DNA of 64,000 bases from Dehalococcoidia bacterium (GTDB lineage: Bacteria; Chloroflexota; Dehalococcoidia; Plut-88900): assembly GCA_965197645.1 (NCBI GenBank), contig OZ240219.1, forward strand, positions 352,001-416,000. Direction: 5' to 3'. Shown piece after piece: positions 21,982-60,856 of the stretch (position 1 is its first letter; each line of letters opens with the position of its first letter). The position numbers and the translations under genes were made by a program. The notes beneath the pieces were generated by a model that had not been told where the DNA came from, did not search any database, and saw nothing but the letters and a program-made list of their open reading frames with translations.

Positions 21982-21989
21982 GGCGTTCA

Positions 21990-28364: not shown

Positions 28365-29216
28365 TCATTCGTCGGTGCCGAATGAAGTGAAGCTGTCCGA
28401 ACCGTCGTTCTGTATGACGTATTGGAACCGTAGCTCATCATGGTCTTCTCCCCGTGTATCGTCTTTGATCGAAAGCACACGGACGGCGGCATAGAACCCG
28501 TTTTTGTTCCGCAACACGACGATCTGACCGACGCAGGGAGTCCTTACAGGCGACGTGTAATCTAGTGATGAAGCATTGACTACCTGTTGTATGGTCGCCC
28601 ATTCGCGAGGAGCGAGAGCTATGCCGTTGATCGAAGGAGGATCGTTATACGCATAGATTCTGATGTCGCTTGCCTTACTCCATTTGGTTTCGAACTCCAG
28701 CGTACCGTGGCCGACAACATAGCGTCCGTTGTGGCTACTGTAGTCGAACACAGCCTCGCCGACCAGAGAAGTCATGCGAGGGGGAGGTACGTCAGAAGCC
28801 TTGCCCTCAAAAGGCTTTAGCCCTAGCTTCTGAACTATCATTGATGCGATCTCAGCCGGTGAGTGATCCCCAGCTTGGAGATAGTGAACGCTGTCTGGTA
28901 AGCCAGGCACTGCGGTGTCATCAAATCGGACAGGTAGGAGGTACTCACCCGGTTCCAGCACCGCTCTGCTCAATGCTGCTCGTCGTTCGTGCCTTGGCCA
29001 AGCCCTTTCGACCCAGGCCTTTGATATGAAGAGGACCACGCAGCCAGCCTTGTACTCGTACACGGCCTGCAACTCCTCGCCGAGATCCTTTCCCCACAGC
29101 GCGCTCTTCTCGAATTCATCGTAGAACACGCCTATGCCACGAGCTTGTAGAGCCAACGCTACCCCTTCAACGTATCTACGCTGTTCACCGGCAAAGGACA
29201 ATGCTACTTCATACAT
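28365..29216 (-). CDS. TIR-domain protein with uncharacterised C-terminal beta domain
   Basis: YEVALSFAGEQR, VFYDEF, LWGKDL, FISKAW..WPRHE (catalytic Glu position), LLPVRFDD. Confidence 0.88.
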   Translation of the reverse strand: MYEVALSFAGEQRRYVEGVALALQARGIGVFYDEFEKSALWGKDLGEELQAVYEYKAGCVVLFISKAWVERAWPRHERRAALSRAVLEPGEYLLPVRFDDTAVPGLPDSVHYLQAGDHSPAEIASMIVQKLGLKPFEGKASDVPPPRMTSLVGEAVFDYSSHNGRYVVGHGTLEFETKWSKASDIRIYAYNDPPSINGIALAPREWATIQQVVNASSLDYTSPVRTPCVGQIVVLRNKNGFYAAVRVLSIKDDTRGEDHDELRFQYVIQNDGSDSFTSFGTDE

Positions 29217-41581: not shown

Positions 41582-44467
41582 TTATCGCTTGCCCAGCGCC
41601 TCGAGGACGCGGTCCGGTGTGGCCGGGATGTCGTAGACCCGGGCTCCGGTCGCATCGGCTATGGCGTTGACCACGGCAGCGACAATGGGAACGTCGCTCA
41701 TCTCGCCTCCGCCCTTAGCGCCGAAGGGGCCTTTGGAGTATTCGCTACCGACGACGGACACCACGGTGATCTTCTCTGGGGCCTGTCGAGTGGTGGGAAG
41801 CCCGTAGGCCTTGATGGTCCTGGTCTCTCCGGGCACGTACCTTTCGCTCAGGGCCAGGCCCATGCCGAAGACGATGCCGCCTTCGCACTGGCCCTCGAAG
41901 CTCAAGGGGTGAAGGATTTTGCCGGAGTCGGCGGCGTAGAGGACCCTGAGCACTTTGACCTGTCCAGTATCGATGTTCACGTCCGCCTCGACGAGGGTGG
42001 TGCCGAAGGAGAACACATCGCAGTTGGACCCCTGGCCGGTTTCGGGATCGAAAGCCTGCTTGTTAGATTTTTCGCTGTAGGCCTTGGCGTGCTTGAAGGC
42101 GAAAGATCCTTCGTATTTCGTAGGGGCCTTCATCTTCTGAAGATGGCGGAAAATGAGATGGTACGGCAGCCTCTCGCCGGGAGCGCGTTTCGAGTAGGCG
42201 TGGCCGGCCTCGAAAAGGACGTTTTCCGGGGTGTCCTCCAGGATCTCCGACGCCGCTTGCGCCATGGCCGCCTTCAGCTTCTTCGATGCGTCGTGGACTG
42301 CGCCCCCGACCAGGGTAACGGTGCCCTGGGAAGCAGTGATGTGCGGATAGGGGGCGAGGATAGTATCGCCCATGACCATGTCCACCGACTCCAGGGGAAG
42401 CGCCAGCTCCTCGGCGGCGATCTGGGCCATGACCGTGCGGCTCCCCTGGCCCTTCTCCACCGCGCCGACGAACACCTTGATCCTGTCGTTTTCCAGCAGC
42501 TCGACCGCGGCCTTGTACTCGCCGCCCACACCGACAGCCCGCCACCCGCATCCTATGCCCACGCCTCGTTTCCAGGGCATGGCCGGAGGGTCCGACTCGG
42601 CCAGGTCCAGGGCCTGGCGATAGGGCTCTCGCACCGCTTCCAGTGTCGCTTTGACTCCCACGCTCTCCTCCAGGGGCATGCCGGTATGTAAGACGTCGCC
42701 TACCTCGAGGGCGTTGAGAATCCGGAAATCCAGCTTGTCCATGCCCAGCTTCTCGGCCAACAGGTCCATCTGGGTCTCATGGGCCAGGGCCGAGGCTATG
42801 CTGGTTATGCCCCTGATGGGGATGGCCCGGGGACTGTTGGTGCAAGCCTCGTTGGCCTCGATGTAGACGTTGGGCACGCGATAGGGACCGGTGATGAAAT
42901 AGGCGTTGCGGCTCACACAATCGTTGATGGCCTCGCCGGGGTTGTGACTCCAGGCCCCACCATCGACCAGCATGTCGGCTTCCATAGCCACCAGCTTTCC
43001 CTCTCTGGTGGCCCCCGTTCTGCACTTCATCAGAAAGGAGTACCACTTGGACGAGCCCAACAGTGATTCCTCCCGGCTGTACACCAGCCTCACCGGTTTC
43101 CGGGTTTTGACTGCAAGCAGGGCCAGGATGCCGGCGTGAAGGTAGTCCTCTCTCCCGCCGAAATTGCCTCCCATCTCGGGGCAGATGATGCGTATTCTGT
43201 CCCGCTCCATGTTCATCAGTCCGGCCAGGAAGGCGTGGCCCTCGAAGGCCTCGTGGGAGGGGAACTCCAGCAGCAGCCTGCCGTCATCATCCAGGTAGGC
43301 GACGCCCGCCTCCGGCTCCATGTAGAAATGCTCCTGTCGAGGAGTGGTGAAGGTGCTCTCGACGATGACCTCGGCCCGAGCCAGACCTTCCTTTGCATCG
43401 CCGGAGACCACCCTTCGAGCGTGGACTACGTTAGGTTCGGGGGGGTTGATGAGAGGAGTGGTTGGGTCTCCGGCCTTGAGGTAGTCCAGAACGGGAGGCA
43501 GTGGATCGTACTCAACGTGGATGCTGTCCAGGGCGGCTTCGGCGGCCTCTTTGGTTGTGGCGGCTACAGCGGCTATGGCCTCGCCGAGAAACCGGACCTT
43601 GTCACGGGGAAAGAGGTAGGTCTGCGGTTTCCCGTTGGGCATCATGGGACTGCCGGGTATATTCTCGGCTGTGACCACCGCCTCGACACCTTCCAGCGCC
43701 TCGGCCTCAGAGGTGTCTATGGAGACGATGCGGGCGTGGTGATAAGGGCTGCGGAGTACCCTGGCATGGAGCATACCCTCCATCTTCAGATCGGCGGCAT
43801 ACCTGGCGGCGCCGGTCACCTTGTCCAGATCGTCTAGCCGGGGAACGCTGGCCCCGACTATCGGGCCGCCGGATACGGGTACGGACCGAACGCCGCCGGC
43901 CCCTCGCATGGCCTTGGCGGCATCCAGGACGGCGTCGATGACTTTGACGTAGCCGGTGCAGCGACAGATGTTGCGGGAAAGCCGTTTGACCACATCTTCC
44001 CTTGCGGGCTCCGGGTTCCGCTCCAACAGGGCCGAGGCCTCCATGATGATGCCCGGAATGCAGAACCCGCACTGGGATGCGCCGAGCTCGATGAAGGCGT
44101 CCTGGAGGGGGTGCAGGTCGCTGTTGTCGAGAGCTTCGGGAGTCGAGTCCTCATGATATCGGGAGGCCAGACCTTCGATAGTGGTGATCTCTTTACCCTG
44201 GGCCCGGCGCACCGGGAGGAGACAGGACATGACCCCCTTGTTGCCAAAGAGGACTATACAGCTCCCGCATTCGCCTCCGTCGCAAGCCTCTTTCGTCCCC
44301 GTGAGGTCCAGGTCGTCCCGCAGCACGTCGAGCAAAGTGCGGTCGGGGACGGTGTTCACCACCCGTCTCTCGCCGTTTACGGTAAGGGCTATGGCTGCTT
44401 TCGCCGGCAACTGCTTTATCGAGGTACTTCCGTTTCGTTCGTCAACGTCCCGAAGATGGTAGCACAA
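41582..44467 (-). CDS. Xanthine oxidase family molybdenum hydroxylase, fused 2x[2Fe-2S] and molybdopterin domains (aldehyde oxidoreductase-like); start uncertain
   Basis: GTKEACDGGECGSC, QCGFC, NICRCTGY, KVTGAARYAAD, MGGNFGGR, EKGQGS, GAKGGGE. Confidence 0.92.
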   Translation of the reverse strand: MCYHLRDVDERNGSTSIKQLPAKAAIALTVNGERRVVNTVPDRTLLDVLRDDLDLTGTKEACDGGECGSCIVLFGNKGVMSCLLPVRRAQGKEITTIEGLASRYHEDSTPEALDNSDLHPLQDAFIELGASQCGFCIPGIIMEASALLERNPEPAREDVVKRLSRNICRCTGYVKVIDAVLDAAKAMRGAGGVRSVPVSGGPIVGASVPRLDDLDKVTGAARYAADLKMEGMLHARVLRSPYHHARIVSIDTSEAEALEGVEAVVTAENIPGSPMMPNGKPQTYLFPRDKVRFLGEAIAAVAATTKEAAEAALDSIHVEYDPLPPVLDYLKAGDPTTPLINPPEPNVVHARRVVSGDAKEGLARAEVIVESTFTTPRQEHFYMEPEAGVAYLDDDGRLLLEFPSHEAFEGHAFLAGLMNMERDRIRIICPEMGGNFGGREDYLHAGILALLAVKTRKPVRLVYSREESLLGSSKWYSFLMKCRTGATREGKLVAMEADMLVDGGAWSHNPGEAINDCVSRNAYFITGPYRVPNVYIEANEACTNSPRAIPIRGITSIASALAHETQMDLLAEKLGMDKLDFRILNALEVGDVLHTGMPLEESVGVKATLEAVREPYRQALDLAESDPPAMPWKRGVGIGCGWRAVGVGGEYKAAVELLENDRIKVFVGAVEKGQGSRTVMAQIAAEELALPLESVDMVMGDTILAPYPHITASQGTVTLVGGAVHDASKKLKAAMAQAASEILEDTPENVLFEAGHAYSKRAPGERLPYHLIFRHLQKMKAPTKYEGSFAFKHAKAYSEKSNKQAFDPETGQGSNCDVFSFGTTLVEADVNIDTGQVKVLRVLYAADSGKILHPLSFEGQCEGGIVFGMGLALSERYVPGETRTIKAYGLPTTRQAPEKITVVSVVGSEYSKGPFGAKGGGEMSDVPIVAAVVNAIADATGARVYDIPATPDRVLEALGKR

Positions 44468-47677: not shown

Positions 47678-48763
47678 ATGAAGGCAGTGGTGATGAGGGA
47701 ACCCTACGTACCGGTAGAGGTCGAGGACGTGGAAGTGGGCACGCCCGGGCCTCGTGAGGTCCTGATCCGTACCGGTGCGGCAGGTGTGTGTCACAGCGAT
47801 CTACACTACGTCGATGGACTGTACACCACCGAACTGCCGACGATCCTCGGCCACGAGTCTGCCGGGACCGTCGAGGAGGTTGGTGAGCTGGTCACCTACT
47901 TTCAGCCCGGCGACCGGGCCATAACTTGTCTTTCAGTATTCTGCGGGACCTGCGACAAATGCCTGACGGGCAACATGGCCCTGTGCCGGAGGATCGGTCT
48001 TGATCGCAGGCCCGATGAGCCGCCCCGCCTCCACAAAGGCGATGAGCTGATATATCAGTACGCCAATCTGTCCTCCTTTGCCGAGTACATGCTGGTGCAC
48101 GAAAACGCTGCGGTGAAGGTGGATGACGACGTTCCCATCGAGGTACAAGCCCTGATCGGATGTGGGGTGACCACCGGCGTGGGAGCGGCGCTCAACACGG
48201 CCCAGGTGGAGCCGGGCAGCACCGTCGCCGTCATAGGGTGCGGGGGCGTGGGCTTGAGCGCGGTGAACGGTGCATACATCGCAGGTGCGGCCCGGGTAAT
48301 CGCCATAGATGCCGTGGAGGACAAGCTGGCCCTTGCCCAGAAGGTAGGGGCCACCGATGTCATCGACGCCTCGGGCGGTGGAGTCGTAGAGAAGGTGATG
48401 AACTTGACCGGAGGCATGGGCGTCGATTACTCCTTCGAGGCGATTGGAAAGAAAGAGACTGCGGAGCAGGCCTTCAATATGCTGGACAAGGGCGGCGCCG
48501 CTACCATCATCGGCATGATACCCGAGGGCACCGAGATCCACATCGATGGACCGTCGATCCTGGCCGGAAAGAAGATCCAGGGGAGCAGCATGGGGTCCAA
48601 CAGGTTCCGGGTGGATATGCCCCGGTACATGGAGCTCTACCGACAGGGCAGGCTGAAGTTGGACGAGATCATCTCCAAGCGAATCAGGATCGAGGACATC
48701 AACGAGGCCTTTGAGGACATGCGAGACGCTCACACAGCTCGCAGCGTCATCATGTTCGACTAA
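47678..48763 (+). CDS. Zn-dependent alcohol dehydrogenase (class III-like MDR)
   Basis: GVCHSDLH, LGHES, CGTCDKC..C, GCGVTTG, GCGGVG. Confidence 0.93.
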   Translation: MKAVVMREPYVPVEVEDVEVGTPGPREVLIRTGAAGVCHSDLHYVDGLYTTELPTILGHESAGTVEEVGELVTYFQPGDRAITCLSVFCGTCDKCLTGNMALCRRIGLDRRPDEPPRLHKGDELIYQYANLSSFAEYMLVHENAAVKVDDDVPIEVQALIGCGVTTGVGAALNTAQVEPGSTVAVIGCGGVGLSAVNGAYIAGAARVIAIDAVEDKLALAQKVGATDVIDASGGGVVEKVMNLTGGMGVDYSFEAIGKKETAEQAFNMLDKGGAATIIGMIPEGTEIHIDGPSILAGKKIQGSSMGSNRFRVDMPRYMELYRQGRLKLDEIISKRIRIEDINEAFEDMRDAHTARSVIMFD

Positions 48764-48786
48764 CGGGCCGCATTTCCGACCTGGCT

Positions 48787-48970
48787 AGATTGCCACGCCC
48801 CGACTTCGTCGGGTCTCGCAATGACGAGGCCGTCGTTGCGAGCGACCGGCGAGGGAGAAACACCTCAGACTGCCGGCAAGGGGCGTCGCCCCTCTGCAGA
48901 CCCCACGTACCTTGACCAGGGAGTCCAGAGGGCTTCCCTCTGGCCGGGGGTTTGGGGGACGTTCCCCCAA
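48787..48970. repeat. Composite palindromic element: RPE-like arm plus forward and inverted REP-like copies
   Basis: AGATTGCCACGC..CTCGCAATGAC; GAGGGAGAAACACCTCAGACTGCCGGCAAGGGGCGTCGCCCCTCTGCAGACCCC; inverted GGAGTCCAGAGGGCTTCCCTCTGG.. Confidence 0.7.
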
Positions 48971-49041
48971 GTCCACAATCGTCTCAGGGTGGGTGGGAGG
49001 GAAAACCAACCACTTGGGCCGGGTGGGGTTGCACACCCGGA

Positions 49042-50370
49042 TTAGACCGGGAGTTCCGATCGATCCTTGACGGTAGGCCCATCGACCGGCTGGGTCAGCA
49101 TCCGCACCGCAGCCCTCAGCAGATCGATTCGCCAGGCCTGCTCATGCTCTGAGGTCAGCTTCGGGTCGCCCAGTGGATGATGGAATCTCCCCTCGGTTCT
49201 GAAAATCCGGTTGGCGCCGACCCTCTCGGCGATGCTGACGAGGGCGGTGATAAGCACCACGGGGATACCGGCCCGTTCGATCTCCTTGGCTAACGTAGCG
49301 CCGCTACGGGTTCCCGTGCCTCAGGTGGCGGTTAGAATCGCCGCCCGGACGTCCCGTGCCTTCATGTCCTCGGCCATTTCGCGCCCGATCCGGGTCATCG
49401 TCTTGATGTTGGCCATGTTCCCGGTGGTGACGTAGTAGTGGTCGGATAGCCGGCTGATGACGCCTGTTTTCTCCAGGAACCGAGCGGCATCGAGAGGCAC
49501 GGTACGATCGGGTGCATCGTTGGTGCCGCTGGTGTCACAGCCGCCGTGCCACGCCTCGTAGTCGCCCCGCCTTAGACTGTTGAGACCCTTGATCGGATAC
49601 TTGAGCCACTTGGACGCGTTCCAGGTCTCCAGCCTGTCGGGGTTGCCTGAAGGCACGAGACCTGACTCGGTGACCAGGGCCACAAGGCTGCGGCTGAGGT
49701 CTGCTATCTCAGGCGCCGGGGGTACGTTGTCGAAATCGGGAATTGGCAGCTCTGTGCGGTACGAACGTCCATCAAGCTTCGCCAGCAGCATGTTCGCGGC
49801 CCGCTCGGCGGCGCCCTGCTTCACCCTTACGTTTCGCCGGACGCCCCGGGGGAGGTACCCCTCGTCATCGGCCGGTCCGATCTCAACACCGCGGCCGAGT
49901 TTAACGACGAAGTCGGCCAGCCTGGGTAGAGCGTCGTTCATCGATGCTGCCGTCGGGCTGGTGGGCAGGATGTAGACGTCCTCACGGAACAGCTCGACGC
50001 CCGGGTTATTGACGTTCATCGCCGTCACCGCGGGCTTGCCTCGTTGCTGCAAGGCTTGAGCAATCGCTCCGCAGGCCGTGCCATAACGACCCGAGTTGAA
50101 GGCGGGTCCGGCCGCCAGCACGTCGGCAGGATGAGAGTCGGCCAGGGCTATGAGTCGACTTGTCGCCTCATCCTGGTTCTCGATGAAGTAGTTGTCGCCG
50201 CAGACCAGCGTCCCGGTGATAGTGGCCCGGTCGGCAAGATGCTTGGCCAGGCCGACGCCGGGCCCGACGGGGCCGGGACGGTACTGGGGAGGAGCGTCCG
50301 CATGGTCCTCGCCTCCTATGCCGCCGAAGAACTGGTTTACGTAGTGGATAACGGTGATTTCGTGATTCAT
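49042..50370 (-). CDS. Glycine/sarcosine/betaine reductase selenoprotein B-like (GrdB family); Sec at codon 350 (TGA 49321-49323)
   Basis: HYVNQFFGGIGGE, AGPAFNSGRYG, AILTAT-[TGA]-GTGTRSGATLAKEIERAGIPVV..VGANRI..HPLGDP; the frame continues to TAA at 49042. Confidence 0.92.
49288..49323 (-). promoter_or_regulatory. SECIS hairpin of the grdB-like gene
   Basis: UGA GGC ACGGG AACC-CGUAGC-[GGC]-GCUACG-UU A GCC; perfect 6-bp stem, G-initiated loop 18 nt after UGA. Confidence 0.7.
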
Positions 50371-50385
50371 GCTAAATTCCCAGCG

Positions 50386-51678
50386 CTAGAAATCCCTGGC
50401 GGTAAAGCCGTTGGTCTGCATCATCCAGAAGCCGGCGTACATCTCGTGGGCGCTGAGGGTGAGACTGCCAGACGCCCGGAGGCGGTGGCCCCACTCCTCG
50501 TTGGAGCTGAAGACCAGCTCCTCGCCTCCAACCACCCGCTTCATCCCGGGCACGGTGAACTGCCTGTCGGCGCCTCCGCCGGAGACTATCGCATCGGCTT
50601 CGCTAGCGTAATCCACAATCGGCCAGTCCCTCCCTTCGATACCACCCAGCTCATGCACCATCTGGACGGTCTGCACCCCCGAGCTCTCCAGTGCCTTAAC
50701 GCTCTGCATGAAGTCCACCCAGGTATTGCCGGTGCCCTCCAGAGTCATCACCGCGCCCTTGACATCCAGCATTCTGGCGACGTTTGCGACCATGTAGCCG
50801 TTCCTCTCCTTGAGCTCATGGTCGTCGTGGTGTCCACGGCATAGTATCACCCCTGCGAAGTCCAGGTCTCGGCCGTGGCGGCTGTACAGGTCCCGGATCA
50901 CGGGATGGTTCAGGCGTAGCCACGTTGGGACCTTCATCATGTTCCGGTAGTTGCCGCTGACCACGGCGCCGTCGAAGTACTCGTTGGGGTGCAGTACCGT
51001 GGGCGCCAGCGAGGCTACCGGCTGGCCGTACAGAAAGGTCTGCACCAGAAACCCCTGCTGCTGCACCTGGTCGACGTAGGCCACCCTGGGCAGGACCGGG
51101 TCTACGTCACCAAGCTCGAACTGCTCAATCTCATCGGGGTCCGTTGCGCTGGTGGCGACCTCGGCAAGGTGCTGTGAGACGCGAAGGCTGCCCATGCGAA
51201 TGGCGTTCTCGAACTCCTCGTTGGTGGCACCACGGCGAGGGGTAAACACCAGGGCGAGGTTATGGGTGTCGGAGCAAGCGGAGAGCTCGGCGCCCGGTCC
51301 GCTCATATCTATGATGCCCTCATTGAACTCCAGGATCCCGCTGGTCGGTTCGGGGAGCCGGGCCGATTGCAACACCGCCAGTCCCTTTAGTCGACGGGTC
51401 ACACCGGCGCCTACGGTGCGGGCGGGCCCCAGAAAGCCGGGGAAGGCGACGGTATCCTCGGTAGCCTTGATGCGGGGCTCGATGGCGTCCAGGACGTGGA
51501 TGATGCGGGTCTCTTCCCCCGGCGAGGCCAGCTCTATCCGAACATCCGATACGGAGTCGTCGTACCTGGCGATCCGGGACACCTCTTCCCGGTCGATGAT
51601 GAGGGCGCCGTTGACCAGGCGGGTCTCGGGACCGAACTGAAGAGCATCGACAGAATAGCTTTCAAGCCGCAGCTTCAA
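50386..51678 (-). CDS. Glycine/sarcosine/betaine reductase component B partner subunit (GrdE/GrdG/GrdI family)
   Basis: ASPGEETRIIHVLDAIEPR, IIDMSGPGAE, PTVLHPNEYFDGAVVSGN, NHPVIRDLYSRHG, ADAIVSGG; TTG start behind GGAGGAG. Confidence 0.9.
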   Translation of the reverse strand: MKLRLESYSVDALQFGPETRLVNGALIIDREEVSRIARYDDSVSDVRIELASPGEETRIIHVLDAIEPRIKATEDTVAFPGFLGPARTVGAGVTRRLKGLAVLQSARLPEPTSGILEFNEGIIDMSGPGAELSACSDTHNLALVFTPRRGATNEEFENAIRMGSLRVSQHLAEVATSATDPDEIEQFELGDVDPVLPRVAYVDQVQQQGFLVQTFLYGQPVASLAPTVLHPNEYFDGAVVSGNYRNMMKVPTWLRLNHPVIRDLYSRHGRDLDFAGVILCRGHHDDHELKERNGYMVANVARMLDVKGAVMTLEGTGNTWVDFMQSVKALESSGVQTVQMVHELGGIEGRDWPIVDYASEADAIVSGGGADRQFTVPGMKRVVGGEELVFSSNEEWGHRLRASGSLTLSAHEMYAGFWMMQTNGFTARDF

Positions 51679-51714
51679 GCCGCTCCTCCCGTTGGTGTCA
51701 TGACTGCTCCACGG

Positions 51715-52464
51715 CTACAGAGCGGTAAAGCCGCCATCGATGACCAGCTCCGAGCCCGTCACGTAGGACGACTCATCGGACGCCAGGAAGAGGATGGCGT
51801 TGGCCACCTCCTCGGGTGTGCCAAACCGTTTCATCGGCACGGCATCGATGTACTTCTGATGGTAACGGGGATTCGCCTTTATCGGGTCCATCATGGGAGC
51901 GTCTATCGGGCCTGGATGCACCGAGTTGGCTCGAATACCGTTCCGGGCATACTGTACGGCCGTCGACTTGGTCAGGTTTCGCACGGCGGCTTTGGAGGCG
52001 CCGTAAGCAGAGCCGGTGGCCGAGCCCAGGATGCCGCCGACCGACGAGAGGTTGACGATGGACCCGGCGCCCGCCTCGATCATCTCCGGAACGACGTACT
52101 TGGTGCCGAGGAACACCCCCTTGGCGTTCACCTCCATGATGCGGTCCCAGTCCTCGCTGCTGGTATCCGCCACACGGTCCCGCTTGATGATTCCGGCGTT
52201 GTTCACCAGCACATCCAGCTTGCCGAAGCGGTCGAGTGTCGTGCGCACCGCCGCTTGCCAGTCCTCTTCGCTGGTGACGTCCAGCTTGAAGAAGGTGACC
52301 TGGCCGCCGGACTCGGCGATCTCCTCGGCCAGCTGCTGCCCTTCCGTCTCCAGCACGTCGCCGATGGCGAGGCTGGCTCCTTCCCTGGCGAAGAGCTTGG
52401 CCTCGGCCGCGCCGATACCCCTGGCGCCACCGGCAATCAGGGCCACTTTGCCTTCGAGTCTCAT
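51715..52464 (-). CDS. Short-chain dehydrogenase/reductase
   Basis: AGGARGIG, LVNNAG, YGASK, NSVHPG, IDGG. Confidence 0.93.
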   Translation of the reverse strand: MRLEGKVALIAGGARGIGAAEAKLFAREGASLAIGDVLETEGQQLAEEIAESGGQVTFFKLDVTSEEDWQAAVRTTLDRFGKLDVLVNNAGIIKRDRVADTSSEDWDRIMEVNAKGVFLGTKYVVPEMIEAGAGSIVNLSSVGGILGSATGSAYGASKAAVRNLTKSTAVQYARNGIRANSVHPGPIDAPMMDPIKANPRYHQKYIDAVPMKRFGTPEEVANAILFLASDESSYVTGSELVIDGGFTAL

Positions 52465-52474
52465 GGCGTGCCTC

Positions 52475-53638
52475 CTAGTCCTCCTTGAGAGCGGGGATGA
52501 CCTCACTGCCAAGTAGCTCGATGGAACGCATGGTCGCCCGGTGGGACATGGCGCCGCACTGGGCCTCCAGCATCAGAGAGCCGATGCCGAGCTGGCGCTT
52601 GATGTGCAACAGCTTCTCCGTGACGGTGTCGGGCGTCCCCACGATGATGCGGTAATCGTCCTGAAGCTCCTGGTAGCTCATCTTCTGCAGCGGTACGGTC
52701 TTACCACCCGTGCTCTTGGCCGAGTTTATCACCGCGCTCTTCCTGCCGGCCCTGCTCAGATATCCGGGTGGAGCGAAGTACTCCCGCGGGCCGAGCAACG
52801 GTCCCCGCATTCGCCACATGATGTGCCTACCCTCCTCTTGGGCCTTCTCCTCGGTGTCGTTGACGTGACAACAGACCATGAAGGCGAATTTTTCCGGGCC
52901 TGCCTCGATACCCTCTTCGGCGGCATAGTTGCGATAGAGGTCAAACAGGCCCTGGGCAGTCTCCAGCGACGTCAGGAAGGCGGCGTAGGTGTAGCCCCGG
53001 CGAGCGGACCACTCAACCGTCTCGGGACTGCCCGTGCCCGGCGTCCAGATGGGCGGGTGGGGCTTCTGCAAGGGCAGCACCCAGGGGTTGACCACGCGGA
53101 AATCGAAGTGGTCACCCTCCCATCGAAAGGGTCCGGGGGTAGTCCAGGTTTTGACCATCAGGTCGTGCGCCTCTTCGAACCGCTCCCGGTTATGTACGGG
53201 ATTGGTGTTGGTGGCCCAGCTTTCGACTCCCAGGCCCCGCACGATGCCCGAGATCAATCGGCCCCCCGAGATAAGGTCCACCATCGCTATCTCTTCCGCC
53301 AGGCGCACCGGATTGTCCGTCGTCGAGATCAGGTTGCCCAGTATCAGGATCTTCGCCCGGGTGGTCATCCGCGCCAGGATGCCGGCGATCACGTTCACCC
53401 CGACGTTCATGCAGGAGCAGCTGTTGTGGTGCTCGTTGATCATCAGACCATCGAAACCCACCTCGGCGGCGTACTGGTACTCGTCCAGGTAGCGCTGGAA
53501 CAGGCCCTGAGCCGTTGGGGCATCAAAGTAAGTGTTGGGGAAGGTCAGGCGCATGGAGGGATAGTTGTCGGCTTCCGACTCGTCGAACTCGGCGTAGGGC
53601 ATTTCGCTGAACCAGTAGACGTCCATACCGGTCTCCAT
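52475..53638 (-). CDS. LLM-class flavin-dependent oxidoreductase/monooxygenase
   Basis: GFDGLMINEHH, NPVRLAEEIAMVDLISGGRL, LQKPHPPIW, IVGTPDTV. Confidence 0.92.
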   Translation of the reverse strand: METGMDVYWFSEMPYAEFDESEADNYPSMRLTFPNTYFDAPTAQGLFQRYLDEYQYAAEVGFDGLMINEHHNSCSCMNVGVNVIAGILARMTTRAKILILGNLISTTDNPVRLAEEIAMVDLISGGRLISGIVRGLGVESWATNTNPVHNRERFEEAHDLMVKTWTTPGPFRWEGDHFDFRVVNPWVLPLQKPHPPIWTPGTGSPETVEWSARRGYTYAAFLTSLETAQGLFDLYRNYAAEEGIEAGPEKFAFMVCCHVNDTEEKAQEEGRHIMWRMRGPLLGPREYFAPPGYLSRAGRKSAVINSAKSTGGKTVPLQKMSYQELQDDYRIIVGTPDTVTEKLLHIKRQLGIGSLMLEAQCGAMSHRATMRSIELLGSEVIPALKED

Positions 53639-53651
53639 TCAGTAAGTGCGA

Positions 53652-54437
53652 TCAGTCCAGAAAGCCCAATACCGTACGAACGAACTCGTCCGGCTTCTCG
53701 ATCTGGGGTGAATGGCCGCAGTTCTCGATGATCGATAGCCTGGCGCCGGGGATGGACCGCTGGTACAGCTCTCCGCAGTTCAGAGGCACAATACGGTCCT
53801 CTCGACCCCAGACGATGAGGCTGGGCACGTCGACCCGTTGCAGAAGGCCGGGGAGCCGGGGATCGTGCATGTAAGGCTTCCAGCAGAGGCGCACGGCCAT
53901 CTCCCGGTTTGACTCCTGGGTCTGCTTCTCCTCATCGGTCAGGGTGCGTTCGTACAGCTCGCTCCACTCCGGGACCTGGCCGGGATCGAAGAAACCGAGC
54001 TGAGCAACCTGTTGGGGGGTAATGAGAAAGACGTCGGCGATTTCCCCCTCCGTGGGTTTGATACCCACGGCGCCCACCAGCACCAGCCGCTCGAGATTAT
54101 GGGGGCACATAACCGCCATCTCGGCTGCTATCCACCCGCCCATGGAGAAGCCCATAAGCCGGACCCTGTCCAGATTCAGCCGGTCCAGAAACCAGAGGTA
54201 GAAGCAGGCCATATCGGGAATGGTCTCGAGCCACGGGGGTCTTTGAGATCGATCATAGCCTGGGTGAGAGGGGACATAGAGGGTGAATCTCTGGGCGAGG
54301 GCCTCGTTGTACTTGCGCCATCCCCGGTGTCCTCCTGCGCCGTGGAGGACCAGCAGGGGCTCTCCGACGCCGCCCTTCATGAAGTGGACCTCGGAGCCAC
54401 CGATGTTGACCTGTTCTTCGCGCCACTCTACCGTCAT
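53652..54437 (-). CDS. Alpha/beta fold hydrolase
   Basis: VLHGAGG, GFSMGG, WGREDRIVP, CGHSPQIE. Confidence 0.92.
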   Translation of the reverse strand: MTVEWREEQVNIGGSEVHFMKGGVGEPLLVLHGAGGHRGWRKYNEALAQRFTLYVPSHPGYDRSQRPPWLETIPDMACFYLWFLDRLNLDRVRLMGFSMGGWIAAEMAVMCPHNLERLVLVGAVGIKPTEGEIADVFLITPQQVAQLGFFDPGQVPEWSELYERTLTDEEKQTQESNREMAVRLCWKPYMHDPRLPGLLQRVDVPSLIVWGREDRIVPLNCGELYQRSIPGARLSIIENCGHSPQIEKPDEFVRTVLGFLD

Positions 54438-54588
54438 TATCCGTCTCTTTCCCATCGCCCTCGGGGCATCTCTTCTCAGTCGATGCCAAGGTCGCCATCG
54501 GCCAGGCCGGTCTTGGATACGCCGATACCCCCGGCACTACCGGCTATCAAGGCTACTTTCCCTTCGGGTCTCATGGCAAGCTTCCTAG
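54349..54588 (-). repeat. Repeat unit A: SDR 5' fragment, linker and hydrolase 5' end
   Basis: 54461-54530 matches 56037-56106 at 69/70 nt; 54520-54577 resembles the SDR start at 52410-52467. Confidence 0.85.
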
Positions 54589-54863
54589 CGCTTGTTGGGA
54601 TCGGGGATTACGTCTTTTCCCAGCAGGCCATCCGATAGCATTCTATCAATTCGGTGAAGGGGTACATCGACCATGATGTTGTCGGTCATGCCGTTGTTGG
54701 CCAGTCTGGTATGGAGATACTCGGTCTCCTCCTGGCTAACGACCCCGTCCGAGATCACGCCCCTGGCAAGCCTAATCAAAGTGTCCATTTGCCAGTTGTT
54801 GATGCGGGACGAGGAACGGACCAATCCGGCAAGCTCCTCATCACAATAATAGACGGCTATCAT
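54585..54863 (-). pseudogene. Degenerate fragment resembling the N-terminal helical region of BRCT-associated proteins
   Basis: QMDTLIRLARGVISDGVVSQEETEYL..RIDRMLSDGLL, truncated at the repeat unit; family recalled, not searched. Confidence 0.35.
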
Positions 54864-54883
54864 TACATCTGTTCTCTTGCTGC

Positions 54884-55828
54884 CTACGGTCCTGGCGGAT
54901 CCAGGGGTATTCCGTACATCGAGTCCGGCTTCAGCCTCGCCGCCTCCGACCCGGGTAGAGGTCGGGACGTCCTGGGCGTTCTGGACGTTCTGGGTGTCTT
55001 AGGCGGCAGGACCGGACCGAGCATGGGTGGAAGAGGCCCCTTGATGCGCCTCAGCAGGTAGGCTGTGAGGAACGCCCCGATGGCCGGCACCCCGACGGCT
55101 ATCAGGATGCTGAACATTATGAAGCCCATCTCCAGCCATTGCCGCAGGAAAAAGACGATGTCGTAACCAGGATAGAACCATAGCCACCTCATCACGGTCA
55201 ATATCCCGAACAGCAAGGCGATCGTCTTCCACGGTATCCGGTCGGTCTCCTTCATTCGCACGGCGCCCCAGACGACCACCAGTGTCCCGCAAAGGCTGAG
55301 AACGTCTAGGATGATGGCCCACTCCATATTTCCAAATCTCAACCACAGCAATGAATAAGGATAGTGCCAGCTTGGGCCTGTGACCAGTGCGAGAAACGGT
55401 AGTATCCGGCTGTAGTGCCGTCCCGTGTAGGTGGCGGCAAAGAAAAACATCCCGAGAAAGTTCATTGCTACCAGAATCCACCATATTGTTGAATAAATGT
55501 CGGACCCCAGTGACTCCGAACGTGAAACGTACCTGACGTTTTGCGCAGCAGACAGCGCCAGTAGGTAGAGATCGTAAGCGACGAAGTAAGCGAGGAACCT
55601 CTGCCGTACCTTGACCAGCACGGCTAGCAACACGATAGATGGGACAGCCATCTCCAGGTTCAGCACCAGCGTGAACAGCGCACTATTGGTCCAAAACCAG
55701 CGTACTGGCCAAAACCATGTCTTTGCATCAAAGACGAAAGAGACCAGGAGAGGCACGGCGAGCACTGTCACCACAGGCCAGAGGTACTTCCTACGCCTCC
55801 TGACGATGAGTTGCATCCGTCTCATCAT
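54884..55828 (-). CDS. Hypothetical polytopic membrane protein with Pro/Arg-rich tail
   Basis: Multiple TM segments; AGGAG RBS; tail PKTPRTSRTPRTSRP. Confidence 0.75.
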   Translation of the reverse strand: MMRRMQLIVRRRRKYLWPVVTVLAVPLLVSFVFDAKTWFWPVRWFWTNSALFTLVLNLEMAVPSIVLLAVLVKVRQRFLAYFVAYDLYLLALSAAQNVRYVSRSESLGSDIYSTIWWILVAMNFLGMFFFAATYTGRHYSRILPFLALVTGPSWHYPYSLLWLRFGNMEWAIILDVLSLCGTLVVVWGAVRMKETDRIPWKTIALLFGILTVMRWLWFYPGYDIVFFLRQWLEMGFIMFSILIAVGVPAIGAFLTAYLLRRIKGPLPPMLGPVLPPKTPRTSRTPRTSRPLPGSEAARLKPDSMYGIPLDPPGP

Positions 55829-56455: not shown

Positions 56456-57139
56456 CTATTCCTCCCCGGATGTGAGGATTTCGAGGATTTCCGTGTGCCC
56501 TCGCCATGCCGCTTCGCTGACTGCCGTATTACCATCCGGGTCAGCCGCCAGTGGGTCAGCTCCGGCCTTGATCAATGCCCTGACGACATCTTCATGACCC
56601 CGCCATGCCGCCTCAATCAATATCGGGCTATCGTCAGCATCAAGAGCGTTGGGGTTGGCCCCTGCATCTAGGAGGATTTGTACGATCTCCGCATCCCCCC
56701 GCCACACAGCCTCATAGATGACCGGGTTCCCATCTGAGTTACGGCCGTTAACGTCCGCGCCCGCGGCGACCAATGCCCTCACTGCATCAGCATTTCCTCT
56801 CCAAACGGGCTCGTTCAGAATCGCGTCTCCCTCAGCGTCCGTAGCATCCGATATCGAAGTCCGTGTGGCCGTCAGGTCCGGGGACGGTGTGGCCGTCAGG
56901 TCCGGGGACGGTGTGGGCGTCAGGTCTGGGGACGGTGTGGACGTCGGGTCTGGGATCGGTGTGGACGTCAGGTCTGGAGACGGCTCCGGAATAGACGTGG
57001 GTGTGGGGTCGGAGGGGAGAGCTAGGGGCACCGTCGGTTCGGAGTCGGATATGGTTAACACCACCACCACCACTAAGGCCGCTATGAGGCCAAGAAACAG
57101 GGACAGCGTGACTGCGATAACAGGTTTCGATAAGTTCAT
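56456..57139 (-). CDS. Membrane-anchored ankyrin repeat protein with Pro/Thr/Ser linker
   Basis: N-terminal TM helix, (TPSPDLTx)n linker, four ankyrin repeats each with E-x-x-WRG. Confidence 0.88.
   Translation of the reverse strand: MNLSKPVIAVTLSLFLGLIAALVVVVVLTISDSEPTVPLALPSDPTPTSIPEPSPDLTSTPIPDPTSTPSPDLTPTPSPDLTATPSPDLTATRTSISDATDAEGDAILNEPVWRGNADAVRALVAAGADVNGRNSDGNPVIYEAVWRGDAEIVQILLDAGANPNALDADDSPILIEAAWRGHEDVVRALIKAGADPLAADPDGNTAVSEAAWRGHTEILEILTSGEE
56863..56982. repeat. 24-bp tandem repeat x5 encoding the ankyrin protein linker
   Basis: GTGTGGCCGTCAGGTCCGGGGACG and variants. Confidence 0.85.
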
Positions 57140-57345: not shown

Positions 57346-57600
57346 CTACTTTCCGTACATAGCTCGGAATTCGTAGGAGTCTATCTTTAACAGAACAGCT
57401 ACGAGCATGTTGTTGCGCTGACCCTGGCTCGTGATGCTCACAACAACATAACCAGGAGAACGATTTAACATCTCTTCTAGTAGCTCTGCGTCTCTACTTT
57501 CTGCGGAGAACATACCTGTATCGTGAGCCTGTACGACCTTCCAAGTTGGAGGTTCACCCGGTCGTCCAGGCGGTCTAGGCGGATCCCGATACAGTGCCAT
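57346..57600 (-). CDS. Small hypothetical protein
   Basis: AAAGGAG RBS; 84 aa; lower GC. Confidence 0.55.
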   Translation of the reverse strand: MALYRDPPRPPGRPGEPPTWKVVQAHDTGMFSAESRDAELLEEMLNRSPGYVVVSITSQGQRNNMLVAVLLKIDSYEFRAMYGK

Positions 57601-57632
57601 CTCTTACTCCTTTCAAATCGTCTCTGGCGAGG

Positions 57633-57736
57633 ATCAGCGGGGGCTCTCCAACCCCGCCCTTCATGAAGTGGACCTCAGAGCCTCCGATGTCCACCTGTTG
57701 TTCGCTCCACTCTACCGTCATTGCTCGTCTCTCTCC
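57633..57736 (-). repeat. Repeat unit C: truncated hydrolase 5' end
   Basis: MTVEWSEQQVDIGGSEVHFMKGGVGEP versus MTVEWREEQVNIGGSEVHFMKGGVGEP of the intact gene. Confidence 0.85.
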
Positions 57737-57857
57737 GGTCGCTCCGGGCCATCCCCATCCGGTCGTCTCCGGGCCCACCATTGTATCAACCTCTATCAAA
57801 CGGGCCATCCCCCTTGGAACCGGGGCTTATAATGGGGCAGTATCCGTCCCACCAACC

Positions 57858-59390
57858 ATGAGCAATCTAGACATACAGGCCAGCTGGTCTTACCACAACA
57901 GCACCAAGCACTCATACGAGAGCCTGCGAGCCCAGGCCCACCACCTGGACTGGCCCAACCAGCCTGTGCCCTTCAAGATCTACAAATCGCTGGATGGGAT
58001 GCCCCTGGGCCTGGAGATGGAGTTCACCAACGTCCCCGCGCTGGAGGTGATCTCCTCCCCACCCATGTCTCCCGAGAAGGAATCCGTGCCCGATCTGGCG
58101 ACCCTTGCCCAGCTCCTTCACCTTTCGGCGGGCATAACCAAGCGCAAGGACTACGGCAACGAGATGCAGGTCTTCTTCAGAGCGGCGGCGTGCACCGGCG
58201 CCCTCTATCACATCGATCTCTACCTCGTCTGTCGCGACCTGCCGGGGCTGGAGGCCGGGGTCTACCACTTTGCCCCCAACGATTTCTCGTTGCGTAGGCT
58301 CCGGGAGGGCAACTACCTGCCTCTGCTGGCCCGGGCCGCCGGAGACGAGACCTCTTTGATGGGGGCCCCGGCGGTGATCGTGTGCGCCGATACGTACTGG
58401 CGCAACTCGTGGAAGTACCGGGCGAGGGCCTATCGCCACACCTTTTGGGACAGCGGGACGCTGCTAGCCAACCTTCTGGCCGTAGCGTCGGCCCACCGTA
58501 TGCCCGCCAGGGTCATATCGAGTTTTGTCGATGAGACGGTAAACCGGTTGCTGGGCCTCGATGGAAAGCTTGAGGCTGCTCAGGTCCTGGTGCCCATCGG
58601 GTCGACGACGCCCATCGAACCCGCAGATACGGACCCCCTGGACCAGCTGGAGTACGAGATTGAACCGCTGTCCAACAGCGAGGTGGAGTACCCCGCCATC
58701 TACGAGATGCACTCGGCCTCGTCCCTCCATACCGGGGAAGAGGTGGCCGAGTTGCAGGGGAAGCGTTTGGAGCTTCCCGTAGACAACCCGGTGGGCCCTC
58801 TGTACCCGCTCCATGACGAGTCGGTGGAGGGCCGGGGCATAGAAGAGACGATCGTTCACCGAGGCTCCACCAGGCGATTCGCTCGTGACAGCATCACCCT
58901 CGACCAGCTTTCCGCGATTCTAAGCACCGCGGCCGAGCCGGTGGACGCCGACCTTCTGCAACCCTACGGCGCTACGATGAACCATCTGTACCTGATAGTA
59001 AACGCCGTCGAAGGTCTGGACAGCGGCGCCTATCTCTATCATCGGGACCGGAGGGCGCTGGAGCTGCTAAGGAAGGGCGACTTCAGGGACAGGGCGGGCT
59101 ACCTGGGGCTGGAGCAGGAGATACCGGCGGATGCCAGCGTCGACGTGTTCTTTTTGGCCGATCTGGACTCGGCACTGGCGATGTATGGCAATCGGGGCTA
59201 TCGCATGGCCCAGCTGGAGGCGGGAGTCCTGGGGGGCAGGCTGTACCTGGCGGCCTATGCTCAACGGCTGGGAGCAAGCGGCCTCACCTTCTACGACGAC
59301 GAGGTGATAGAGTTCTTCTCACCTCGTGCCGAAGGTATGAGCGTCATGTTCCTCGTCGCCCTCGGCAAATCGGTGCGGCGAAAAGAGTAA
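57858..59390 (+). CDS. SagB/ThcOx-like tandem nitroreductase-domain protein
   Basis: YHNSTKH, FRAAACTGALY, WKYRARAYRH, RGSTRRF, GNRGYRMAQLEAG, GLTFYDD; start moved to ATG 57858. Confidence 0.88.
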   Translation: MSNLDIQASWSYHNSTKHSYESLRAQAHHLDWPNQPVPFKIYKSLDGMPLGLEMEFTNVPALEVISSPPMSPEKESVPDLATLAQLLHLSAGITKRKDYGNEMQVFFRAAACTGALYHIDLYLVCRDLPGLEAGVYHFAPNDFSLRRLREGNYLPLLARAAGDETSLMGAPAVIVCADTYWRNSWKYRARAYRHTFWDSGTLLANLLAVASAHRMPARVISSFVDETVNRLLGLDGKLEAAQVLVPIGSTTPIEPADTDPLDQLEYEIEPLSNSEVEYPAIYEMHSASSLHTGEEVAELQGKRLELPVDNPVGPLYPLHDESVEGRGIEETIVHRGSTRRFARDSITLDQLSAILSTAAEPVDADLLQPYGATMNHLYLIVNAVEGLDSGAYLYHRDRRALELLRKGDFRDRAGYLGLEQEIPADASVDVFFLADLDSALAMYGNRGYRMAQLEAGVLGGRLYLAAYAQRLGASGLTFYDDEVIEFFSPRAEGMSVMFLVALGKSVRRKE

Positions 59391-59647: not shown

Positions 59648-60856
59648 TTGGATGCCAAGAGATTTTGGGATGAGTTTCACTTTGACTATCGACTTGAGCA
59701 AAAAAGAATCTATGAATCTTTGATAACTATAGAGGCTCATAGGCAGACTGCTCAAAATCTTATCCTCGCACCTGAATGGCGTCGACAGCTAGACCGACTG
59801 AACAGGGTACGAGCAGTCCACGGCACAACTGCGCTCGAGGGGAATCCTTTGTCGGAGGCAGAGGCTTCTTATCAAATTGATGTTGTGGATCAGGAAAGTG
59901 ACATGCCGGTAGAGCGCGTAACTAGAGAGCAGCAACAAATCCGGAATGCAGCCAATGCTCAAGATTGGGTAAAGGACCGGTTCACCGCTGACCAACCACC
60001 TGTCCGCCTAAACGATATCCTCACGATGCATAGAATGATTACCAAAGGTTCGGATGAGAACAATAACATCCCCGGTAGACTTCGCTCACAGTCAGTAACA
60101 GTGGGCTCTCCAAACATGGGCGGCGTACATGTTGGAGCTCCTCATGACACTCTGGCTGACCTTATGGAAGAGTTTGTCAGGTTTGTGAACTCGAACCAAT
60201 TCCGTAGCGAACATCCGGTGGTACGAGCACTGCTGGCACACTTCTTCTTGGTGACTATTCATCCGTTTGGCGATGGCAATGGAAGGGTGTCCAGGCTACT
60301 CGAGGCTGGAGTCCTCTTTCAGAACGGATACAACGTCCACGGGTTTTATGGCCTTTCAAACTTTTTTTACAGCAGTGGAGATCAATACAAGACCTTGCTT
60401 CAACAAACCCGCCGGACCCAACCATTTGACGTTACTTCATTCGTGACATTCGGAATAAAGGGATTCGTCGAGGAACTGGAAGGCATAAACAATTTCATCA
60501 AGACAAAAATCAATCGTGTAATGTACCGGCAAATGCTGGTGGCGGCTCTAGGCGAGAAGGTCAGCGAACGCCGCCGAAAGTTAAACGCCAGGGAATACCA
60601 ACTGTTGATCTATCTGTTGAGTGAGACTGAGCCGATAGACCCGTTTTCTGAACAACCGTCCCGTCGAATAGAGTTAGATGAGCTAGTCAACTCTTCGTAT
60701 GTAAGCGGTGCTTATCGCAATGTAACCCGACGAACCTTTATGAGAGAACTTCTTAGATTGCGTGAGATGGAATTTATCAAGGTAGATACTAGTGAGCCGA
60801 ACCGATTCATCATCGAGATCGACTTCGAGGCAATCGCCAAACATCAAATGTATTGA
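59648..60856 (+). CDS. Fic domain protein with C-terminal wHTH-like region
   Basis: HPFGDGNGRVSR catalytic motif; TTALEGN inhibitory-helix-like motif; low GC. Confidence 0.92.
   Translation: MDAKRFWDEFHFDYRLEQKRIYESLITIEAHRQTAQNLILAPEWRRQLDRLNRVRAVHGTTALEGNPLSEAEASYQIDVVDQESDMPVERVTREQQQIRNAANAQDWVKDRFTADQPPVRLNDILTMHRMITKGSDENNNIPGRLRSQSVTVGSPNMGGVHVGAPHDTLADLMEEFVRFVNSNQFRSEHPVVRALLAHFFLVTIHPFGDGNGRVSRLLEAGVLFQNGYNVHGFYGLSNFFYSSGDQYKTLLQQTRRTQPFDVTSFVTFGIKGFVEELEGINNFIKTKINRVMYRQMLVAALGEKVSERRRKLNAREYQLLIYLLSETEPIDPFSEQPSRRIELDELVNSSYVSGAYRNVTRRTFMRELLRLREMEFIKVDTSEPNRFIIEIDFEAIAKHQMY

Follow-up and report, generated by a model that had tools for sequence, protein, structure and literature searches.

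A predicted selenocysteine-containing protein B of the Grd family, from an uncharacterised clade, in a SAR202-type Chloroflexota genome

Textbooks describe Grd-type reductases from strict anaerobes. A pair of genes for the two subunits of a Grd "protein B" was found in a 64,000-nucleotide stretch of Dehalococcoidia DNA (contig OZ240219.1 of assembly GCA_965197645.1, positions 352,001 to 416,000; the whole stretch is referred to as the window), which its gene content and closest relatives (Dehalococcoidia or SAR202) place in the SAR202-type Chloroflexota. Judged by sequence comparison, the pair is a substrate-specific protein B within a large uncharacterised environmental clade that is separate from GrdB, GrdF and GrdH, and its GrdB-like subunit contains a selenocysteine (Sec) codon. 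What is new here is an uncharacterised clade of the known Grd protein B family, and a preliminary description of the locus, which had taken the pair for a stand-alone selenoenzyme recruited to a flavin-dependent catabolic pathway, is supported in part. The comparison relies on the following features:

50386-51678, minus strand: GrdE-like protein, alpha subunit of Grd protein B, 430 amino acids (Pfam PF09338, 1.3e-111)
49042-50370, minus strand: GrdB-like protein, selenoprotein subunit of Grd protein B, 442 amino acids (Pfam PF07355, 2.8e-125; TIGR01918, 450 bits against a cut-off of 65)
49321-49323, minus strand: in-frame TGA, Sec codon 350, aligned with the Sec codons of GrdF, GrdH and GrdB
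49283-49320, minus strand: bacterial Sec insertion sequence (SECIS) hairpin, directly 3' of the TGA, with its stem starting 11 nt downstream

Among the described systems, the glycine reductase proteins GrdE/GrdB of A. noterae and the sarcosine reductase proteins GrdG/GrdF of P. acidaminophilum share both Pfam families, the Sec position and the SECIS placement with the window pair. GrdB and GrdF are both 43% identical to the window GrdB-like protein, which matches their N-terminal YxNx6GGE and CGD motifs but does not reach the equivalog scores, and the window clade has the GrdB-type TxGN rather than the GrdF-type TTGTGT. The GrdB and GrdF motifs given in excerpts of PMC9751293 are matched in part, with GPAFNSGRYG for ..AGRYG, WHGGCDT for AHGGxD, RTVPLD for RV[IL]PxD and TTGNMANI for TxGNxTxV; in place of the sarcosine reductase motifs IHGGYDR and TTGTGT the window reads WHGGCDT and TTGNMA. 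GrdI/GrdH of E. gilvus, protein B of betaine reductase (known in the literature from Eubacterium acidaminophilum), likewise has two subunits and a Sec that aligns with that of the window, and is 40% (B subunit) and 32% (E subunit) identical to the window pair. Its genes share a cluster with trxB, trx, grdA, grdC, grdD and a BCCT transporter, whereas the window pair is accompanied by none of these.

A further described system is the fluoroacetate reductase B component FarE/FarB of Cloacibacillus porcorum, a Sec pair homologous to GrdE/GrdB whose operon, according to excerpts of PMC10838667, contains neither an A nor a C component; in this the window pair is similar. The same excerpts state that FarB lacks the CxxC after Sec, a motif that protects Sec from oxidation, that FarE lacks the pyruvoyl-forming cysteines and is therefore, like GrdI, not a proprotein, and that FarEB is predicted to hand a carboxymethyl-selenoether to shared A and C proteins. 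The window clade has the same two motif losses, FarB being compared through this description only (PMC10838667). However, the window GrdE-like protein is not an orthologue of FarE: its 128 bits in the FarE model NF053623 fall short of the cut-off of 675 and lie under those of the canonical GrdE (201), GrdG (206) and GrdI (172). Moreover, the window pair has no adjoining radical-SAM gene or oxalate/formate-type antiporter, and its clade is hosted by Chloroflexota and other largely aerobic lineages rather than by rumen Synergistota.

At the superfamily level the cut-offs are passed by a wide margin, for PF07355 (419 against 22 bits) and PF09338 (374 against 22 bits) as well as for TIGR01918. Model scores at the level of the equivalogs are far lower. 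The window GrdB-like protein reaches 414 bits in the GrdB model (TIGR01917, cut-off 602; A. noterae GrdB scores 946), 447 bits in the GrdF model (NF040794, cut-off 800) and 419 bits in the GrdH model (NF040795, cut-off 775), and its identity to the reference GrdB, GrdF and GrdH is 40-43%. The GrdE-like protein reaches 293 bits in the GrdG model (NF040793, cut-off 780). Scores for D-proline reductase PrdA/PrdB were 66 bits against the PrdB cut-off of 300 (TIGR04483) and 38 bits against 700 (TIGR04480). A maximum-likelihood tree of 47 rows agrees with these values: the window clade forms 36 rows with support 100/99 and is separate from the GrdF of P. acidaminophilum and the GrdH of E. gilvus. 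The pair thus lies outside the GrdB, GrdF and GrdH equivalogs and does not branch with these two characterised reductases, as the preliminary description had considered it might. Within this clade a subclade of 12 rows (support 100/98) contains the window and consists of isolated pairs throughout; as it is nested among rows linked to grdC, isolation is the derived state. Hosts of the clade are Dehalococcoidia/SAR202, Rokuibacteriota, Methylomirabilota, Acidobacteria and Nitrospinae, and searches of the literature on SAR202, these host phyla and Grd or selenoproteins, with supplementary files outside the search, returned no paper describing it.

The family as a whole is, by its sequences, far more diverse than its three studied members. 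Each of the best 120 of 1141 database matches (90%-identity clusters) has an identity of 62% or more to the window GrdB-like protein, and the best full-length match among representatives at 50% identity is 43% identical. None of the 76 family representatives at that level scores above the GrdB, GrdF or GrdH cut-off in NCBIfam labelling, all but three of them (73) being truncated at or near the Sec codon, although one, P0309, leans strongly to GrdH. An assignment of substrates by model scores was rejected on this count (0 of 76). Sequence searches of solved structures gave no match to the GrdB-like subunit at E<=1, and the match of the GrdE-like subunit to azurin (E=0.66) was dismissed as chance.

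Related loci were taken from a scan of species-representative genomes. There are 18, of which 13 are contigs of Dehalococcoidia metagenome-assembled genomes (MAGs); the other five come, one each, from Rokuibacteriota, Methylomirabilota, Acidobacteria, a short contig of an uncultured Dehalococcoidia and 'Candidatus Moanabacter'. All of them have a GrdE-like gene 5' of the GrdB-like one, and in 17 the two are immediate neighbours. In the remaining locus (L007:7304-10001) the pair is split by an insert of about 2.7 kb, with a minus-strand gene for an AAA_21/AbiEii-type ATPase (8267-9601) and a 206-residue open reading frame (ORF), which looks like a mobile or defence insertion.

The in-frame TGA is a true Sec codon, as the preliminary description had read it. 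The GrdB-like frame contains only this one TGA, in the context TAT-U-GTGTRSGATLAKE, and continues for 92 more codons to a TAA. All 18 related loci, spanning at least five phylum-level groups, carry TGA at the homologous codon, and the 84-92 residues that follow it are 51-80% identical to those of the window (75-80% in 14 loci, including the grdC-linked L010 and L011). The SECIS hairpin is equally real. Its 7-bp stem, GCGUAGC-GGN-GCUACGC in an RNAalifold consensus of 16 sequences, has six pairs kept in 16/16 and the seventh in 15/16, the window being the one that differs; synonymous sites are included in this conservation, while flanking third positions vary. The stem is essentially invariant and leaves no covariation to be scored. 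Rfam SECIS_4 matches the hairpin over its full length at 22.9 bits (E=0.01), below the gathering score of 38, and the single-sequence fold of the region is not distinctive (z=+1.15).

That the TGA is instead an ordinary stop, or the pair a decaying remnant, leaving a truncated 349-residue protein and no functional selenoenzyme, is very improbable. Database annotation appears to favour it, since the best 120 of the 1141 matches are all called at about 349 residues and end at the Sec codon; gene callers stop at that codon, which accounts for these lengths. The 64-kb window also contains no selA, selB, selD or tRNA-Sec, its sole tRNA being a tRNA-Arg. Against this stand the TGA and conserved downstream peptide in 18 of 18 loci, the invariant SECIS-like hairpin at canonical spacing and the alignment of the codon with the Sec of GrdB, GrdF and GrdH. 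There is likewise no sign of relaxed constraint, the post-Sec peptide of the window being near-identical to that of its linked relatives. In the 'Candidatus Moanabacter' locus (L018:10833-11320, with grdC next), the GrdB-like gene can be aligned only with changes of frame, ahead of the TGA as well as in the stretch that follows, which may be assembly indel errors or signs of a decaying copy.

The clade departs from the studied enzymes at two catalytic positions. Tyr244 of the GrdE-like subunit aligns with Cys242 of GrdE/GrdG, the alignment reading SGN-Y in 16/16 clade rows, whereas A. noterae GrdE and P. acidaminophilum GrdG have SGN-C there. Cys242 of GrdE was reportedly identified by Bednarski et al. 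in 2001 as the cleavage site that becomes the pyruvoyl group, and the cysteine of SGN-C that aligns with the clade tyrosine is presumably this pyruvoyl-forming residue. With tyrosine in its place, the window GrdE-like protein is predicted not to be a self-cleaving proprotein; the second nearby cysteine of GrdE/GrdG is also gone from the clade. E. gilvus GrdI has phenylalanine at the pyruvoyl position (SGS-F), and the lack of cysteine in both proteins is consistent with a substrate unable to form a Schiff base.

The second change concerns the residues after Sec, which read U-GTG-TRS (UxxGxxS) in the window and 17 of the 18 loci and U-GSG-TRS in the remaining one. GrdF, GrdH and A. noterae GrdB all have U-GTC-TRC, corresponding to the UxxCxxC motif of the Grd/Prd selenoprotein B superfamily (PMC13188914), of which both cysteines are thus replaced in the window. 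Among studied systems, the combined loss of the pyruvoyl site and the Sec-adjacent cysteines is reported, as far as the excerpts of PMC10838667 go, only for the fluoroacetate system, and it suggests a substrate from which a good leaving group can be expelled. Some cysteines are specific to the clade: the GrdE-like subunit has C135 and C280, and the GrdB-like subunit has C278 (HGGCDT). Furthermore, a Cys/His-rich stretch that includes C280, LCRGHHDDH, occupies residues 279-288 of the GrdE-like subunit in all clade rows where GrdE/GrdG read LTNENVY, and could be a metal site.

The explanation that best accommodates these observations, with a probability of roughly 0.55, is that the pair, as the B component of a Grd-type selenoenzyme, feeds A and C components encoded elsewhere in the genome. 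The pair would bind a substrate of the type X-CH2-COO- that needs no Schiff base, such as a quaternary ammonium or sulfonium betaine, a tertiary amine or a haloacetate; glycine betaine, dimethylglycine, dimethylsulfonioacetate and haloacetates are the candidates that can be named. Dimethylglycine is, to our knowledge, the one methylated glycine without a known reductase. Sec350 would then attack the alpha carbon and expel X, and the resulting carboxymethyl-selenoether would be handed to selenoprotein A and then to protein C, with acetyl phosphate as the putative product. Such a selenoether needs a resolving partner, and the loss of the adjacent cysteines in the clade therefore supports A and C components encoded elsewhere; on balance we lean slightly towards grdA and grdC being present in another part of this genome.

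Linkage within the clade points the same way. A grdC gene lies downstream of the pair in four of the 18 loci, all outside the window subclade, grdA occurs in two of them and grdD in one, so that standing alone is not an intrinsic property of the clade protein B. The grdC gene is directly 3' of the pair in three of the four, L010 (Rokuibacteriota), L011 (Dehalococcoidia) and L018; L011 GrdC scores 559 bits against an equivalog cut-off of 450 and is followed by a grdA with the CxxU motif. The pair of L017 (Acidobacteria) is preceded, at the edge of the contig, by the 3' end of a grdA gene, while its grdC and grdD genes are found 3.4 kb downstream. No grdC was found in L012 within the 1.1 kb after the pair. 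Among the matches listed, 11 contigs are apparently common to GrdB-like and GrdC proteins and four to GrdB-like and GrdA proteins, which points to frequent co-location of the clade B pair with GrdC/GrdA on metagenomic contigs.

The preliminary description had drawn weight from the view that A and C are usually clustered with B. This premise does not hold generally, as distant B pairs are normal in characterised organisms: in P. acidaminophilum (NZ_CP007453.1) grdG-grdF occupies 512-515 kb, A, C and D genes are absent within 9 kb of it, and grdA is at 762 kb, 250 kb away on the same replicon. In many bacteria several B components feed one reductase, according to the excerpts of PMC10838667, which predict this arrangement for C. 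porcorum farEB as well.

Several points weigh against an A/C-fed protein B. As the preliminary description had stated, partner genes are absent from the window: grdA, grdC, grdD, trx, trxB and grdX were found neither by Pfam among its 49 ORFs nor by six-frame tblastn over its whole length with E. gilvus and P. acidaminophilum queries (E<=1e-3), and queries from A. noterae and the GrdC and GrdA of L011 (E<=1e-4) were also without a match. All 11 isolated-type Dehalococcoidia loci with full flanks likewise have no A, C, D, trx or trxB within 10 kb of the pair, and no thioredoxin system was found even beside grdC-linked pairs. Mb-scale contigs with a SAR202-type GrdB-like gene are absent from the best 120 of 7734 GrdC matches and from the best 120 of 308 GrdA matches, which is suggestive. 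This is so although the identity of SAR202-type GrdB to L011 (62-68%) overlaps that of the linked forms (62-70%). In addition, the substrate is wholly inferred from sequence. Finally, Grd enzymes are regarded as anaerobic in the available parts of bioRxiv 10.1101/2022.07.06.499078 and PMC9321204, and excerpts of PMC5395668 describe SAR202 as aerobic oxidisers of organic matter.

Part of the earlier interpretation stands, in that the window has none of the partner genes and its isolated relatives have none within 10 kb of the pair, but the clade is linked to grdC in four of 18 loci and the window subclade is nested there. A SAR202-type pair that has lost A and C, and acts as a stand-alone Se-dependent enzyme cleaving C-N, C-S or C-halogen bonds together with neighbouring flavoenzymes and hydrolases, would fit the lack of A, C and D genes within 10 kb in every isolated locus and the absence of the large contigs of these loci from the GrdC and GrdA matches listed. 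We nevertheless consider a truly stand-alone pair unlikely, at about one chance in four. A selenoether formed on B needs a resolving thiol or selenol, the clade has lost both cysteines and its close relatives use GrdA; moreover, compared with its linked relatives the sequence has neither evolved faster nor changed its motifs. Somewhat less likely still is an oxygen-tolerant version, in which the enzyme would have shed the oxidation-prone cysteines and the pyruvoyl group and would cleave a carboxymethyl-X compound in concert with luciferase-like oxidoreductases (LLMs).

The neighbouring genes bear on the same question. The pair is at the end of an array of five co-oriented genes on the minus strand (49042-54455), and the coordinates, strand and Pfam/NCBIfam classes agree with the five closely spaced genes of the preliminary description. 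Besides the pair, the array comprises:

53652-54455, minus strand: alpha/beta-fold hydrolase, 267 amino acids, first in the array (Pfam Abhydrolase_1 PF00561, 4.1e-30)
52475-53638, minus strand: luciferase-like flavin- or F420-dependent oxidoreductase (LLM), 387 amino acids (Pfam Bac_luciferase PF00296, 3.6e-38)
51715-52512, minus strand: short-chain dehydrogenase/reductase (SDR), 265 amino acids from a TTG start (Pfam adh_short_C2 PF13561, 3.5e-77)
49006-49022, minus strand: terminator-like hairpin with a T-run, 20 nt past the stop of the GrdB-like gene

The hydrolase has its best weak matches among meta-cleavage-product and lactone-type hydrolases, with HsaD on top in NCBIfam (100 bits against a cut-off of 400), and the LLM is below every NCBIfam subfamily cut-off, the best being TIGR03858 at 104 bits against 462. 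For the SDR an alternative ATG start 15 codons in, at 52467, would give 250 residues. Gaps between the five genes are 13, 8 (or -38, depending on which SDR start is taken), 36 and 15 nt, and the hairpin is the sole terminator-like site on the minus strand in 48700-55000, although such sites are no more numerous here than in shuffled sequence, which makes this weak evidence. Given the tight gaps and a terminator-like hairpin only after the last gene, a single transcript over the five genes is plausible in this genome. Both features also suit a stand-alone enzyme working with its neighbours.

A conserved linkage to the LLM, SDR and hydrolase genes, on which the preliminary description had made its reading depend, is not found. 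The order hydrolase-LLM-SDR-GrdE-GrdB occurs in none of the 18 related loci, which have only the GrdE-like/GrdB-like pair in common, and homologues of the three other window genes stand beside the pair in none. The nearest homologue of the hydrolase is 6 kb off in L015 and 27% identical, and a search for the SDR gave no homologue scoring 60 bits or more at any of the 18. Five of the loci (L004, L005, L007, L008 and L009) are syntenic with one another, and the other flanks vary from locus to locus. The five-gene order is thus no conserved unit; the three genes beside the pair are a lineage-specific juxtaposition that is probably co-transcribed with it. Within the syntenic group, L004 (CBDCFV010000006.1) and L009 (CBDCFV010000003.1) belong to the same MAG and have near-identical pairs with the same flanks over 21 kb, representing either a recent duplication or two haplotypes separated by the assembler. 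Upstream of the pair this group encodes a partner-switching set of a STAS protein, a SpoIIE-type phosphatase, an anti-sigma kinase-like protein and a sensor kinase.

LLM genes as a class do recur near the pair. Nine independent isolated contexts were compared, namely the window, L001, L002, L003, L004 (standing for its five-locus group), L006, L014, L015 and L016. Set aside were L011 as linked, L012 and L013 as short, and the loci from outside Dehalococcoidia. An LLM gene is located within 2 kb of the pair in four of the nine and within 5 kb in six. Seven LLM genes fall within 5 kb (90 kb of sequence) and one farther out (118 kb), for a one-sided binomial p=0.014, and a split at 2 kb gives 5 against 3 (p=0.005), neither value being corrected for having chosen this family or these distance limits; Pfam detected no further LLM among 39 far-flank ORFs. 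Tight co-oriented arrays of pair and LLM are present in three contexts. Apart from the window these are L015, with the order LLM, CN-hydrolase, beta-lactamase-fold protein, PNPOx, lactonase, GrdE-like, GrdB-like (gaps of 14-95 nt), and the L004 group, with GrdE-like, GrdB-like, an MsnO8-family LLM and an NtaA/DmoA-family LLM (gaps of 11 and 31 nt), the latter being a flavin mononucleotide (FMN) monooxygenase of 538 bits against a cut-off of 280 in L004.

The two additional independent arrays and the concentration of LLM genes near the pair argue for a stand-alone enzyme embedded in flavin-dependent metabolism. On the other hand, no single orthologous partner exists, since the subfamily of the neighbouring LLM changes with the locus: it is of the F420 type in L006 and L015, of the FMN type in L014, MsnO8 and NtaA/DmoA for the two of the L004 group, and unassigned in the window. 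Two of these LLMs are on the opposite strand, and the hydrolase and SDR do not recur. SAR202 genomes are also crowded with LLM paralogues, 152 being reported for five partial genomes in the excerpts of PMC5395668. The enrichment hints at metabolic coupling rather than at an operon partner; some coupling, by substrate supply or product removal, is possible. Of the flavin-dependent pathway proposed earlier, the recurrence of LLM-class genes is retained, but neither one orthologous LLM nor a recurring hydrolase and SDR. In L006, a flavin reductase gene (2196-2693) is found 6 kb upstream of the pair, and an 83-residue CXXCXGXG zinc-finger-like ORF (11447-11698) lies directly 3' of the GrdB-like gene, adjoining the F420-type LLM.

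A scheme proposed for SAR202, as given in excerpts of PMC5395668, leads from alcohol to ketone, lactone and acid by way of an SDR, a type II Baeyer-Villiger LLM/FMNO (flavin mononucleotide monooxygenase) and an esterase or lactonase. The hydrolase, LLM and SDR of the window are of these enzyme classes. The paralogue-rich gene content, with M24 creatinase-like proteins, Amidohydro_2, family III CoA-transferases, LLMs, zinc alcohol dehydrogenases and an old yellow enzyme fusion, also matches the style of SAR202 genomes. However, the scheme as excerpted has no place for a Grd-type selenoenzyme, and the text of PMC5395668 contains no word starting with 'selen' outside an author name in the references and no 'glycine'.

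Compatible with a protein B that feeds A and C from elsewhere is a narrower proposal, in which the pair would be an aerobe-adapted B component of a reductase for glycine betaine or another methylated glycine, isofunctional with GrdHI. The alpha subunit lacks the pyruvoyl cysteine as does GrdI in the excerpts of PMC10838667, and in the five L004-group loci a ProVWX-type betaine/proline/choline ATP-binding cassette (ABC) transporter is encoded 4-7 kb downstream (ProV 411 bits against a cut-off of 327; ProX 367 against 215). A methyltransferase of this group resembles sarcosine/dimethylglycine N-methyltransferase, at 188 bits against 550, and together the ProVWX and methyltransferase genes lie 4-9 kb downstream of the pair. 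Two homocysteine S-methyltransferases (PF02574) and an oxidase of the DAO family are encoded in the window as well, but at a distance of more than 17 kb. The proposal is doubtful all the same. The GrdH model score (419 bits against 775) is below that of the GrdF model (447), the clade stands apart in the tree from E. gilvus GrdH and the GrdH representative, and GrdH keeps UxxCxxC, reading U-GTC-TRC where the window clade has U-GTG-TRS. The transporter link is confined to one of the nine independent contexts, and no BCCT or OpuD transporter adjoins the pair, unlike in the E. gilvus locus. A betaine transporter at L006 was considered and rejected: its ABC ATPases, although clustering with ProV, are of the OppD/OppF type, so that the L004 group is the only source of this link. 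Across L004:11340-19963 the gene content is an MsnO8-family LLM, an NtaA/DmoA-family LLM, a ScyE-family protein, ProV/ProW/ProX and the methyltransferase, and it is the same in L005, L007, L008 and L009.

The clade adds a large substrate-binding branch of the Grd family in mostly aerobic and very abundant lineages, the SAR202 of the dark ocean and the Rokuibacteriota and Acidobacteria of soil and groundwater. Knowledge of its substrate would add a Se-dependent route by which osmolytes or halogenated acids are turned over where oxygen is present, and would correct the widespread mis-annotation of these proteins as truncated "glycine reductase" or "betaine reductase". If the stand-alone, oxygen-tolerant alternative were true, Se-dependent Stickland-type chemistry would take part in aerobic deep-ocean carbon turnover.

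Some other genes of the window and of related loci may be mentioned. A 961-residue fused 2Fe-2S and molybdopterin hydroxylase is encoded at 41582-44467 of the window; its second-best NCBIfam match is a selenium-dependent xanthine dehydrogenase, which would make it a possible second selenium-linked enzyme in the window, but the 550 bits are far below the cut-off of 830. A molybdopterin hydroxylase is also found directly upstream of the pair in L002 (6100-8403). A 598-residue protein with a double nitroreductase domain (57594-59390) lies 3 kb upstream of the array, and a 45%-identical homologue is located 6.5 kb from the pair in L014 (17852-19453). Both recurrences may be due to chance in such paralogue-rich genomes. 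The window further encodes a TIR-domain protein (28365-29216), a Fic/DOC-family protein (59648-60856) and an ankyrin-repeat protein with a signal anchor and a Pro/Thr/Ser-rich repeat linker (56456-57139), which are unusual company for catabolic genes. Lastly, the GC content drops to 0.52-0.55 in 20000-28000, compared with about 0.60-0.63 elsewhere, and this stretch encodes a peptide/opine-type ABC transporter, whose permease genes are at 21034-22871 and whose family-5 binding protein is encoded at 23307-24962.

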